From: an uncultured Gammaproteobacteria bacterium
GTDB lineage: Bacteria; Patescibacteriota; Microgenomatia; Levybacterales; UBA12049
Assembly: GCA_965230895.1 (NCBI GenBank)
Contig: OZ246394.1
Location: forward strand, 633,316 to 697,315
Length of the DNA: 64,000 bases
Reading direction: 5' to 3'
This document shows positions 16,838 through 22,053 of the stretch, piece by piece. The notes beneath the pieces are model-generated. The model was not told the DNA's origin, made no database searches, and worked only from the letters and a program-made list of their open reading frames with translations. The translations under genes were made by a program, and so were the position numbers. Every line of letters begins with the position of its first letter. Positions within the stretch are counted from its first letter, which is position 1.

Positions 16838-18625
16838 TTACCAATATAGTGTACTATTAGCCTTCAACTGGTACTCCTTTATTCTTTTATCTCTCGGATT
16901 TTCGAAATAAAGAATATATGCCATCCCCTTATTCGCTGCTGGGCTGTTAGGATTAAGTATTAATGCTTTTTGATTAAATTCCTTTGCCTTTGAAAGATAG
17001 TTCATATTAAAAAGGAATGTGCCGAGGTTAGTATAGGCATCAAAGCTTGCGTATTGGTAGTCCTTCAAATCTAACTTAGCCAAATCAATTGGCTGTAAGC
17101 CCAACTCCTGTTGTACCTCGGTCTTTACAAAGACGATCATGAATTGATCAAGGAATACGATCTTCCACTCAGGATCTTTATTCATAGCATTGAAAAATGC
17201 TAGTGTTTCTTTATTCTGGTCAAGGATTGAGAAGATGACTGTTTTTATCCCCTTCTCCTGCTCAAGCTTTTTAAACTTTTTGTAGCCTGCCAGTACAGGC
17301 AGATATTCTTCAGTGAAGTATGTGGCAGGATATGCCTCAGGTCTTCCATCGACAGAAACTTTGTATTCGGGATACCCACGGTAAAAGATGTAACTCCCAA
17401 TATTGAAGTTATTAAATATCGGCTGAGGTAACTTATTTGTAAGTACATAATCCATCGCTGGCTTTGCGTCTTCTGTGAACTCAAGTTTTGGCGTCCAGGT
17501 ACGATAGGTTAAAGCATAATAGGAACCATTAAGGTAAAGTATCGCTTCGAGGATGATAAATGACGCAAGGAGAATATTGGTCATTTTAACCCAAACATTA
17601 TCCTTCATATAGTTAAAGTTCATCAGTACATATGGAAGTGAGATGAGGAAAAGATACGGGAACCCTCTCATGCTCTGCGTTGCCAATCCTAAACCCAATA
17701 AGGTAAGTAAAATATTCTTCAATGAGAACTTGGTTCTGAAAAAACTTGCATAGATTGAGGCAAGAACAATAAACGCTGCCATGTAATAAAACCCAAAGTC
17801 TGGATTTACAAAATTTGTTTCCTGCAAAGCAAATATCGTTTTATTCTCTGTGATGGTGACACCGTAGTTATTGAACACTGTGAATGGGTAAATTGCTCCT
17901 TTAATGAAGTTTGGATTAATAAATGAAGCTAGAATTGAAGCAATGGTAACTCCCGTAAGTATCCATATCTGTTTACTCAACCCTGCCACATTCTGCATAT
18001 ACTTCTTAAAGAGTAAATCAGCCAAGAATATTACTTGGATAAATATCCCCACAGGAAAATAGATATGACTATTCGCCCATACTAATGATACAAAAGGCAG
18101 AGCATATATTAGCTTGGAATTATGCTTCACAAACCGCTCAAGAATGAGCAAGTGCAACACAGTAAAAAGAAAACTCAAAATCTCAGGACGCATTTCTGAT
18201 CGTCCCCTGAATAAATGGAGAAAAATAAATGAGACAGAAAAGAAAAGAGCAGATTTTGTTTTGTACGCTATGACTAAGACGATGCCGACAATAAGTAATA
18301 GGATCAAGAATTTGAACACAAGCATTGCTTGAAGCCCTATCGTGACACTTCCCAAGTAGACAAGCACTTCAAAAAGCCAATGATGGTTAACAAATGGGAA
18401 ATTGGGATAGGTGTAAGAGAAGAGATTGGTATTAGGAACTGATTGAGTATTCCAAATAATCTCCCCTAACTTTAAATGCCGCCCAAGATCTTGATTAAAG
18501 GATTGGTCATTGTGGAAGAGGAAGGAGAATGCAAGAAAAAAAAGAAGAGCAAAAGGCCAGAATTTAAAATACATTTCTTTTAACCATTTGATCTGTTTAC
18601 CATTCAAGCCTAACTTATAACTCAT
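16838..18625 (-). CDS. Polytopic membrane protein with C-terminal TPR repeats; possibly a GT-C-like glycosyltransferase.
   Basis: The 595-aa protein has at least 10 predicted TM helices and a soluble C-terminal domain with a TPR-like AKEFNQKALILNPNSPAANKGMAYILY. It is divergent from the large surface protein gene. Confidence 0.4.
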   Translation of the reverse strand: MSYKLGLNGKQIKWLKEMYFKFWPFALLFFLAFSFLFHNDQSFNQDLGRHLKLGEIIWNTQSVPNTNLFSYTYPNFPFVNHHWLFEVLVYLGSVTIGLQAMLVFKFLILLLIVGIVLVIAYKTKSALFFSVSFIFLHLFRGRSEMRPEILSFLFTVLHLLILERFVKHNSKLIYALPFVSLVWANSHIYFPVGIFIQVIFLADLLFKKYMQNVAGLSKQIWILTGVTIASILASFINPNFIKGAIYPFTVFNNYGVTITENKTIFALQETNFVNPDFGFYYMAAFIVLASIYASFFRTKFSLKNILLTLLGLGLATQSMRGFPYLFLISLPYVLMNFNYMKDNVWVKMTNILLASFIILEAILYLNGSYYALTYRTWTPKLEFTEDAKPAMDYVLTNKLPQPIFNNFNIGSYIFYRGYPEYKVSVDGRPEAYPATYFTEEYLPVLAGYKKFKKLEQEKGIKTVIFSILDQNKETLAFFNAMNKDPEWKIVFLDQFMIVFVKTEVQQELGLQPIDLAKLDLKDYQYASFDAYTNLGTFLFNMNYLSKAKEFNQKALILNPNSPAANKGMAYILYFENPRDKRIKEYQLKANSTLYW

Positions 18626-18729
18626 GACTATAATAGTATCTTTTTTAGTCTTTCTCTACAATAGATTTTTAACACTTTGATATATTGACAATGAAATATC
18701 CTCTTGATTAACTAGATATAGAACTTCAA

Positions 18730-21700: not shown

Positions 21701-22053
21701 ATTCAGTTGATACCACAGGATTAACGAATCCAGCACCAGAAGCCGCATACAAGTCTGTACGCTATGGTAATTTCTCCTACAACTTACCAAACCTTAACCC
21801 AGAGACAAATTATGTTTTAAGACTTCACTTTGATGAGTTCTATTGGACATCAATCGGAAGTAGAGTCTTTGATGTCTCAGTTAATGGATCTCAAGTTCTC
21901 AATGATTACGACATTTATGAAGCTGCTGGGGCACAAAATAAGGCGATAATTGAGGATATTCCTGTTACTACGGATGAAGAAGGAGACTTAAATGTTCAGT
22001 TTACCTCAGTGACTGATAATGCAATGGTTAGTGGAATTGAAGTAGTAAACTAA
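18730..22053 (+). CDS. Large secreted, surface-associated protein. It has three carboxypeptidase-regulatory-like repeat modules, an Ig-like domain and two malectin-like carbohydrate-binding domains.
   Basis: It has a signal peptide ([28 protein letters not shown]). Three ~200-aa repeats begin with VTLTGKVLD...NQ.VGIAP. An Ig-like segment follows ([35 protein letters not shown]). The two C-terminal domains match the malectin pattern (GINVGG...[11 protein letters not shown]...LHFNELYW...RVFDV) and are joined by a PTPTPT linker. Confidence 0.7.
   Translation: [1107 protein letters not shown]

Follow-up and report, generated by a model that had tools for sequence, protein, structure and literature searches.

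Malectin modules (carbohydrate-binding module family 57, CBM57; PF11721) are known from the malectin of the animal endoplasmic reticulum (ER), where in the Xenopus laevis protein the sugar is contacted by Y67, Y89, Y116, F117, and D186, and in the related form of tandem malectin-like ectodomains from the plant CrRLK1L kinases (ANX1/2 and FERONIA), which are rigidly packed, have no canonical sugar pocket, and recognize RALF peptides together with LLG co-receptors. Glycosyltransferases of the GT-C fold with a C-terminal tetratricopeptide repeat (TPR) region are exemplified by TMTC1–4 (GT105) and TMEM260 (GT117), which O-mannosylate the β-strands of β-sandwich domains, and by TfpW from Pseudomonas aeruginosa (11 transmembrane helices plus TPR), which is encoded next to the gene of its substrate, pilA. 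The oligosaccharyltransferases STT3, AglB, and PglB, also of the GT-C fold, are recognized by a list of motifs that includes TIXE/SVSE on external loop 5 (PMC8342417). Here we compare with these systems two divergently transcribed genes at positions 16838–22053 of a 64,000-nt window of contig OZ246394.1 (the window is the whole stretch of DNA analyzed, and coordinates without a locus name are positions within it): one for a 1107-aa protein ending in two malectin domains and one for a 595-aa polytopic membrane protein (Table 1). We are fairly confident that they form a native pair composed of a secreted, bivalent glycan-binding stalk protein and a GT-C glycosyltransferase. Both open reading frames (ORFs), checked in the ORF list, have exactly the coordinates given in the initial annotation of this DNA, which had been made from the letters alone.

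How Patescibacteria, to which the organism most probably belongs (see below), recognize and hold on to their hosts is largely obscure, and secreted lectin-like proteins are reasonable candidates for this function. The surface protein described here offers two well-defined malectin modules for such studies.

The malectin-bearing surface protein

The N-terminus of the 1107-aa protein has the features of a signal peptide, namely a basic start, a hydrophobic core, and an A-x-A site; the protein is probably exported by the Sec system with cleavage of this peptide. The sequence contains no LPxTG motif, no C-terminal hydrophobic anchor, and no Cys at all, and therefore no lipobox. Ser, Thr, and Asn together account for 36.6% of the residues (Ser and Thr for 27%). 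Scans against Pfam and NCBIfam revealed no catalytic domain.

Most of the chain is a β-sandwich stalk. CarboxypepD_reg (PF13620) matches in four stretches with an expectation value (E) of 8e-37 (125.9 bits versus a cut-off of 32.3). Each of the three tandem repeats of ~200 aa opens with a CarboxypepD_reg-like sandwich, with many columns being identical among the three, and the matches in this region to CarboxypepD_reg, CarbopepD_reg_2, and Big_1 are found at residues 117–171, 313–367, and 499–558. The three repeats had been predicted in the initial annotation; Pfam and the repeat alignment bear them out, and a further CarboxypepD_reg-like sandwich precedes them at the N-terminus. The Ig-like module, also predicted, was identified by NCBIfam as an OmpL47-type barrel. 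An AlphaFold2 (AF2) model of residues 705–1107 (predicted local distance difference test, pLDDT, 84.6) consists of three all-β domains, the region of the Ig-like module having a pLDDT of 84–95.

The two C-terminal domains are confirmed as malectins, as had been proposed, both in fold and in sequence family. Pfam Malectin PF11721 matches in two stretches with E = 1.6e-46 (158.7 bits versus a cut-off of 23), domain 2 finds Xenopus malectin (2k46) with E = 3.8e-10 (phmmer), and a profile built from 21 malectin domains of the family finds the malectin of the Protein Data Bank (PDB) with E = 8.7e-14. In a Foldseek comparison with the PDB the two-domain unit is most similar to the tandem malectin-like ectodomains of ANX1/2 and FERONIA (E ~1e-17, best 1.5e-17), followed by the CBM57 modules of GH2 β-glucuronidases (E ~1e-10); human malectin (9ikp) is matched with a TM-score of 0.68 and a root mean square deviation of 3.3 Å. 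For the sugar pocket, the contact residues of X. laevis malectin were mapped via the verified chain sequence of 2k46 and its numbering offset using a global MAFFT alignment, since the hhalign and HMMER alignments span only the central part of the domain; MAFFT placed D186 and left Y67 unplaced. Four of the five contacts have equivalents in both domains: Y89 is Y, Y116 is Y, F117 is W, and D186 is D. Among the 21 family domains these equivalents are conserved in 19, 21, 19, and 21 cases, respectively. With the malectin fold and four of the five pocket residues kept, neither a non-lectin fold nor a lost sugar pocket has to be reckoned with.

The likeness to animal ER malectin thus extends from the passed Pfam threshold and the sequence matches (E ~1e-10 to 1e-13) to the fold and the pocket. 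The bacterial domains differ in being extracellular, tandemly duplicated, and carried on a β-sandwich stalk, their identity to animal malectin is ~22–31%, and nothing suggests a Glc2-N-glycan as ligand. From the plant CrRLK1L ectodomains, the best structural match, they differ in that the pocket residues are retained and the two domains are separated by a disordered Pro-Thr linker. The linker had been noted as PTPTPT and is found as PTPTPTPT; it lies in the only segment of the AF2 model with a pLDDT below 50 (model residues 248–258). From this arrangement the stalk and the Ig-like module would present, at the C-terminal end, a pair of malectin/CBM57 modules joined by a flexible linker, and the protein would function as a bivalent glycan-binding protein, either a lectin or an adhesin.

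The closest described proteins are those from Patescibacteria that are named malectin domain-containing carbohydrate-binding protein at NCBI (P0130, P0132, and P0141), with 42–80% identity and the same architecture of signal peptide, CarboxypepD_reg repeats, Ig-like module, two to three malectin domains, and Pro-Thr linkers. In most of these relatives an SdrD_B-like insert precedes the malectin domains, and in some there is a third malectin domain or a C-terminal extension; the 1107-aa protein has none of these. The surface protein is a further member of this already named family, and its architecture is not unusual. The view that tandem malectins are unusual in bacteria has therefore to be given up: the same layout, with two to three malectin domains and Pro-Thr linkers, recurs in more than 20 long homologues, and a search with the two-domain unit yielded 275 proteins of which, among the 120 listed, about 40 span both domains in varied architectures. 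Judged from these sequences, tandem malectins are common in environmental bacteria. In the library of papers that could be searched, none links malectin to Patescibacteria.

The polytopic protein and its family

In the AF2 model of the 595-aa protein (pLDDT 89.9; predicted TM-score 0.88) 11–13 membrane helices are followed by an α/β domain (residues 372–505) and by four TPR-type helices (residues 528–589). Loop charges and helix lengths favor 11 true transmembrane (TM) helices, and an odd number of helices after a basic N-terminus implies an extracellular C-terminus. The TPR region is recognized by comparison of the family profile with PDB sequences, in which only consensus TPR proteins are matched (E = 3.8e-9, positions 513–573), and by Pfam TPR_1 at residues 529–560 (E = 1e-3, below cut-off). 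The model and the TPR profile match are in agreement with the earlier prediction of at least 10 TM helices and a C-terminal TPR domain.

A GT-C-like architecture had likewise been suggested, and the fold comparison proposed for it was carried out. Among the PDB structures, the ten matched best by Foldseek are all GT-C proteins (STT3 from yeast and human, the C-mannosyltransferase DPY19, PglB, and ArnT) with E values from 1.5e-5 to 2e-2 and TM-scores of 0.35–0.54, the best being 8age_A (STT3; E = 1.5e-5, TM-score 0.54). There is no transporter among these ten, so that a transporter in place of a GT-C protein is not indicated. The structural model thus supports the assignment of the 595-aa protein as a GT-C-fold glycosyltransferase with a periplasmic α/β domain and TPR.

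Conservation was counted over 33 aligned members of the family. In the loop directly after TM helix 1, which forms two short juxtamembrane helices, D40, Q45, D46, G48, and H50 are invariant (33/33). Acidic residues that are conserved within the first extracytoplasmic loop, as expected of GT-C enzymes, are therefore present by sequence position, and by analogy to D77 of PMT1 and D52 of TMEM260 we infer that D40 and D46 are the probable catalytic residues. Also invariant are the block R140-x-R142-x3-R146-P-E148 and the residues W183-x-N185-x-H187, and the periplasmic domain carries the motifs F-[DN]-I-G-S-Y and D426-G-R-P.

With TMTC1–4, TMEM260, and TfpW the 595-aa protein shares the N-terminal polytopic GT-C part, the acidic residue of external loop 1, and the extracytoplasmic C-terminal TPR; the gene of TfpW is, moreover, adjacent to that of its substrate in the way the two genes of the window are adjacent. 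It differs from them by an extra α/β domain between the membrane part and the TPR, by having only about two TPR repeats, and by the absence of any detectable sequence relationship. Indeed, the hidden Markov models (HMMs) for PMT/PMT_2 (GT39/GT83), TMTC (DUF1736), and TMEM260 (DUF2723) remained unmatched by the 33 members and by 10 divergent ones, and the membrane domain has no Pfam match at E ≤ 1 in the 33 members or at E ≤ 0.1 in the 10 divergent ones.

The family is large. In an exhaustive profile search the number of representative clusters rises from 2,231 at E ≤ 1e-30 through 11,893 at E ≤ 1e-10 to 19,779 at E ≤ 1e-3. Many members are ~500 aa long, end after the α/β domain and have no TPR. 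The family has neither a name nor a Pfam or NCBIfam model nor a characterized member, and it is the more novel part of the pair.

TABLE 1. Features of the gene pair, with their positions in the 64,000-nt window.
Feature	Position	Strand	Basis
Gene of the predicted GT-C-fold membrane protein, 595 aa	16838..18625	-	ORF; AF2 model; Foldseek
C-terminal TPR region, residues ~513–589, about two repeats	16859..17089	-	Profile match; model helices
Periplasmic α/β domain, residues 372–505	17111..17512	-	Model; invariant N405, G410, Y412, D426, R428, P429
Polytopic GT-C TM domain, residues 1–371, 11–13 helices	17513..18625	-	Model secondary structure, hydropathy, fold matches
External loop motif N253-Y-G-x-T257-I258-x-E260-N261, T-I-x-E-like	17831..17869	-	Family alignment, residues 253–265
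First external loop, residues 37–82, with candidate catalytic acidic residues	18380..18517	-	Invariant D40, Q45, D46, G48, H50
Divergent intergenic region, 104 bp	18626..18729	.	Spacer between the two ORFs
Gene of the predicted secreted multi-domain glycan-binding protein, 1107 aa, stop codon included	18730..22053	+	ORF
Probable Sec-type signal peptide, residues 1–28 (...PAFA|DT)	18730..18813	+	Read from sequence, by eye
N-terminal CarboxypepD_reg-like β-sandwich, residues 29–111	18814..19062	+	Pfam; MetallophosN-type match 35–89
Three tandem ~200-aa repeats, residues 112–310, 311–505, 506–705	19063..20844	+	Three-unit alignment and Pfam
OmpL47-type Ig-like β-barrel, residues 726–794	20905..21111	+	NCBIfam NF047446, E = 2.4e-14, 53.5 bits versus cut-off 40
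Malectin/CBM57 domain 1, residues 800–945	21127..21564	+	Pfam, profile, fold match
Pro-Thr linker PTPTPTPT, residues ~951–958	21580..21603	+	Sequence; low-pLDDT segment
Malectin/CBM57 domain 2, residues 963–1107	21616..22050	+	Pfam best stretch 965–1101; phmmer

The two genes in relatives and the possible roles of their products

The surroundings of the GT-C gene were compared at two levels: in a sub-clade of 11 loci, the window included, whose GT-C proteins are at least 57% identical, and family-wide in 80 loci from species-representative genomes. Within the sub-clade a large secreted β-sandwich/malectin protein is encoded in the divergent arm in 7 of the 11 loci. The gene directly adjoining in divergent orientation codes for a large CarboxypepD_reg protein, which may or may not include malectin domains, in the window, L003/L004 (79% identity), L088 (73%), and L007 (60%). 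In L089 (72%), L006 (63%), and L087 (60%) one to four polytopic/TPR genes, some of them with weak PMT_2 matches, lie between the GT-C gene and that of the surface protein, which is of the CarboxypepD_reg/SdrD_B, the CarboxypepD_reg/PKD, or the tandem-malectin type. The arm often terminates in a cupredoxin gene. No such surface protein is encoded at the other four loci (L091, L005, L090, and L001/L002). The association in 7 of 11 loci suggests a plastic surface-protein locus beside one or more GT-C-type genes.

It may be added that one to four extra polytopic proteins of ~580–707 aa with C-terminal TPR are encoded near the GT-C gene in several of these genomes (L087, 2304–9927; L001, 2600–7948; L006, 5722–7494; L089, 8175–9914; L090, 6790–8556), and that in L087 PMT_2, Bac_transf, and NTP_transferase genes are also nearby. 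The polytopic/TPR neighbours of L006 and L001 are not paralogues of the 595-aa family, as hhalign aligns the TPR region only. Since in both proteins tested the overlap is confined to the TPR, several distinct GT-C-like/TPR families appear to be clustered at these loci.

The reading of the two genes as those of a lectin-like stalk protein and a GT-C glycosyltransferase has to be weighed against several observations. A CarboxypepD_reg or malectin gene was found within 10 kb of the GT-C gene in only 1 of the 80 family-wide loci, which is that of the close relative L007 with 60% identity, the result being the same by tblastn and by profile HMMs, and the neighbours that are conserved elsewhere (Fic-like, S41-peptidase-like, TerC-like, RuvB, and P-type ATPase) are unrelated to glycosylation. 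No sequence link in Pfam, NCBIfam, or the PDB connects the 595-aa family with a GT-C family, not even at E ≤ 1. With respect to the surface protein, the loop equivalent to Y67 cannot be aligned by sequence, and there is no anchor that would hold the protein on the cell.

A strong contender, to which we give slightly less than even weight, is that the two genes are neighbours by coincidence, the GT-C protein being a general envelope glycosyltransferase (for cell-wall polymers, lipids, pilins, or many secreted proteins) whose gene borders a variable surface-protein locus. This would be in accordance with the roughly 12,000 clusters of the family, many of whose members have no TPR, with the occurrence of the gene as a single copy in diverse neighbourhoods of Daviesbacteria and Levybacteria that have no surface-protein gene nearby, and with its codon bias, which resembles that of housekeeping genes. 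However, surface protein, polytopic/TPR genes, and cupredoxin recur beside the GT-C gene in 7 of the 11 close relatives, which is above what random placement in a genome of ~1–1.6 Mb would give.

The recurrence can also be seen as the mark of a dedicated enzyme-substrate module, in which the GT-C/TPR protein would O-glycosylate Ser and Thr on the β-sandwiches of its neighbour as this emerges from Sec. The genes are divergently adjacent with a spacer of 104 bp, the adjacency is direct in L003/L004, L088, and L007 and interrupted by the intervening polytopic/TPR genes in L089, L006, and L087, the neighbour is 27% Ser/Thr, and precedents exist in TfpW-pilA and in TMTC/TMEM260, the latter acting on cadherin and IPT domains. 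By analogy to these, glycosylation of the neighbour is plausible. A module dedicated to this one substrate is nevertheless doubtful in our view: such a neighbour is missing in 4 of 11 close relatives and in 79 of the 80 family-wide loci, and the GT-C protein exceeds the surface protein by far in both conservation and distribution and must therefore have other or more general acceptors. Tentatively, the acceptors might be Ser/Thr-rich secreted β-sandwich proteins such as the neighbour, for which we put the chance well below even, or they may be other envelope molecules. In either case the GT-C protein would, judged from its fold, use a polyprenyl-phosphate-linked sugar as donor and carry out the transfer at the external side of the membrane via D40/D46 of the first external loop, and the periplasmic α/β domain and the short TPR would hold the acceptor. 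A GT-C protein with possible protein substrates adjoining in a sub-clade would be a starting point for studies of how Patescibacteria glycosylate their envelope and proteins.

For the malectin protein a role in nutrient capture, by tethering polysaccharides from the environment or released by a host, has to be considered in place of that of a host-attachment determinant. In bacteria, modules of the CBM57/malectin type occur mostly as appendages of glycoside hydrolases, as in the GH2 glucuronidases found by fold; there is a partial NCBIfam match to glucuronidase/arabinofuranosidase, homologues are fused to CBM2, GH10, or esterase domains, the fold also matches that of a Bacteroides surface glycan-binding protein (7kwb), and the protein has no cell anchor. 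Against this speak the absence of a catalytic partner or transporter gene among the scanned genes of the locus and the long stalk, an architecture typical of adhesins. We regard nutrient capture as a possible but rather unlikely function.

It is very improbable, in contrast, that the GT-C protein is a divergent oligosaccharyltransferase which N-glycosylates the N-x-S/T sequons of its neighbour, a possibility hinted at in the initial annotation. What could be taken in favor is that STT3 is the best fold match, that acidic residues in external loop 1 and a C-terminal periplasmic α/β domain are common to both, D40 and D46 being invariant there as in the oligosaccharyltransferase motif list, and that there is a weak fold match to the C-terminal domain of AglB (3vu0_C, E = 0.3). 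To this comes the nearly invariant T-I-x-E motif in an external loop (T in 30, I in 32, and E in all 33 members), which is reminiscent of the TIXE motif by which archaeal and bacterial oligosaccharyltransferases bind the acceptor and may serve as a lead; the lower pLDDT of this loop (65–82) is consistent with flexibility. But the family differs from STT3/AglB/PglB in that WWDYG (searched as WWD or W[WY]D[YWF]G) and DGGK are each found in 0 of 33 members and in that none of the 33 has an STT3 Pfam match at E ≤ 1; the number of TM helices is also probably different, being more likely 11 than 13. The neighbour, described in the initial annotation as exceptionally rich in sequons, has 33 of them, where 26.7 ± 4.1 are expected from its composition. 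In eight homologues the conservation of sequon Asn (0.50) is that of other Asn (0.49), and only two D/E-x-N-x-S/T sites are present. The description does not hold, and N-glycosylation as main explanation was rejected, since the sequons are neither enriched nor preferentially conserved and WWDYG is absent.

More speculative than O-glycosylation of the neighbour as such, and in our opinion rather improbable, is the wider proposal that the 595-aa family, seen here only in Patescibacteria, is an undescribed glycosyltransferase family, with a motif set of its own (D40, D46, R-x-R-x3-R-P-E, T-I-x-E, F-D-I-G-S-Y, and D-G-R-P), which glycosylates secreted β-sandwich surface proteins in these ultrasmall cells, the adjacent malectin lectin included, possibly via an acceptor loop like that of the oligosaccharyltransferases. 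If this were true, the family would merit a CAZy family of its own.

Native composition and surroundings of the locus

The initial annotation had placed the pair on a horizontally acquired island. The flanking genes are, however, housekeeping genes, namely pyrG (CTP synthase), pyk (pyruvate kinase), uvrB, pilB, dnaE, and genes for DNA polymerases; the G+C content (GC) of the region is flat (0.37–0.40 versus a window mean of 0.38); the nearest tRNA gene, at 40990, is 19 kb away; and among the neighbours scanned there is no integrase or recombinase domain, a search for flanking direct repeats not having been made. The tetranucleotide distance does peak at the gene pair (z ~3.5), and the GT-C gene has a high GC at third codon positions (z ~3). 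When codon bias is calculated independently of amino acid composition (Karlin), the surface-protein gene nevertheless ranks with the most typical ones of the window (z = 1.4); the GT-C gene deviates with z = 4.9, which is within the range of housekeeping genes (pyk 6.1, pilB 3.8, pyrG 3.1). The codon bias being native, the tetranucleotide peak is explained by internal repeats and by the bias toward Ser, Thr, and Asn. Both genes are native chromosomal genes and not island-borne. That the region is an acquired island carrying an adhesin is extremely unlikely: the tetranucleotide and third-position values, the variation of the flanking genes between relatives, and the low GC (0.30) of the adjoining DUF2726 gene could be cited for it, whereas ordinary GC, native codon usage, the lack of an adjacent tRNA gene and of an integrase in the scanned neighbours, and the vertical inheritance of the GT-C family across Microgenomates speak against it.

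Both genes belong to known kinds and are unremarkable examples of them, and the arguments for special interest from an island, from sequons, and from a rare tandem fail. Of the two the GT-C family, an orphan by sequence with a known fold, is the more interesting lead.

Copies 100% identical to the two proteins are found in the public databases under P0001 (595-aa protein) and P0121 (1107-aa protein). Their source contig has 1,610,123 bp. A size of 1.61 Mb is large for a genome of Patescibacteria, which typically have ~1 Mb or less. In the NCBI annotation P0001 (578 aa) begins 17 codons further downstream than the ATG chosen here (18575–18625, minus strand); the homologues P0002–P0004 have 595 aa, which favors the longer form. 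Homologues come by their source names from Patescibacteria near Daviesbacteria and Levybacteria (Microgenomates), and a Daviesbacteria-like member of the Patescibacteria/Microgenomates is thereby supported as source organism, as far as can be judged from sequence relationships. It should be noted that many of the metagenome-assembled genomes (MAGs) that are GTDB representatives and contain a gene of the 595-aa family (L008, L013, L017, L020, and others) have "uncultured Gammaproteobacteria bacterium" or "Methylomirabilota" in their record titles, which look like placeholder or erroneous taxonomic labels.

A promoter scan of the 104-bp spacer gave a single weak promoter-like site, on the minus strand, which is no more than expected by chance. 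Downstream of the GT-C gene, at a distance of 4 bp and on the same strand, lies a gene (16312–16833, minus strand) whose 173-aa product combines an N-terminal TM helix with a DUF2726 domain (E = 8.6e-29). With a GC of 0.30 (z = -3.5) it is the most AT-rich of the genes examined. A DUF2726-domain gene is present at the matching position in none of the relatives' loci, and the gene may therefore be a recent insertion.

On the other side, 3' of the surface-protein gene, 580 bp (22054–22634) are without an ORF of at least 80 aa; tblastn revealed no remnant of a cupredoxin gene in this gap, nor did Rfam give a match at E ≤ 1. In four close relatives (L003/L004, L007, L087, and L089) a cupredoxin gene of ~130 aa closes the surface-protein arm at the equivalent position. 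Further on, an ORF of 424 aa (24015–25289, minus strand) has a match to cytochrome P450 just below the threshold (E = 5.8e-5; 22.5 bits versus a cut-off of 22.8); a P450-like protein would be unexpected in the reduced genome of a member of the Patescibacteria.

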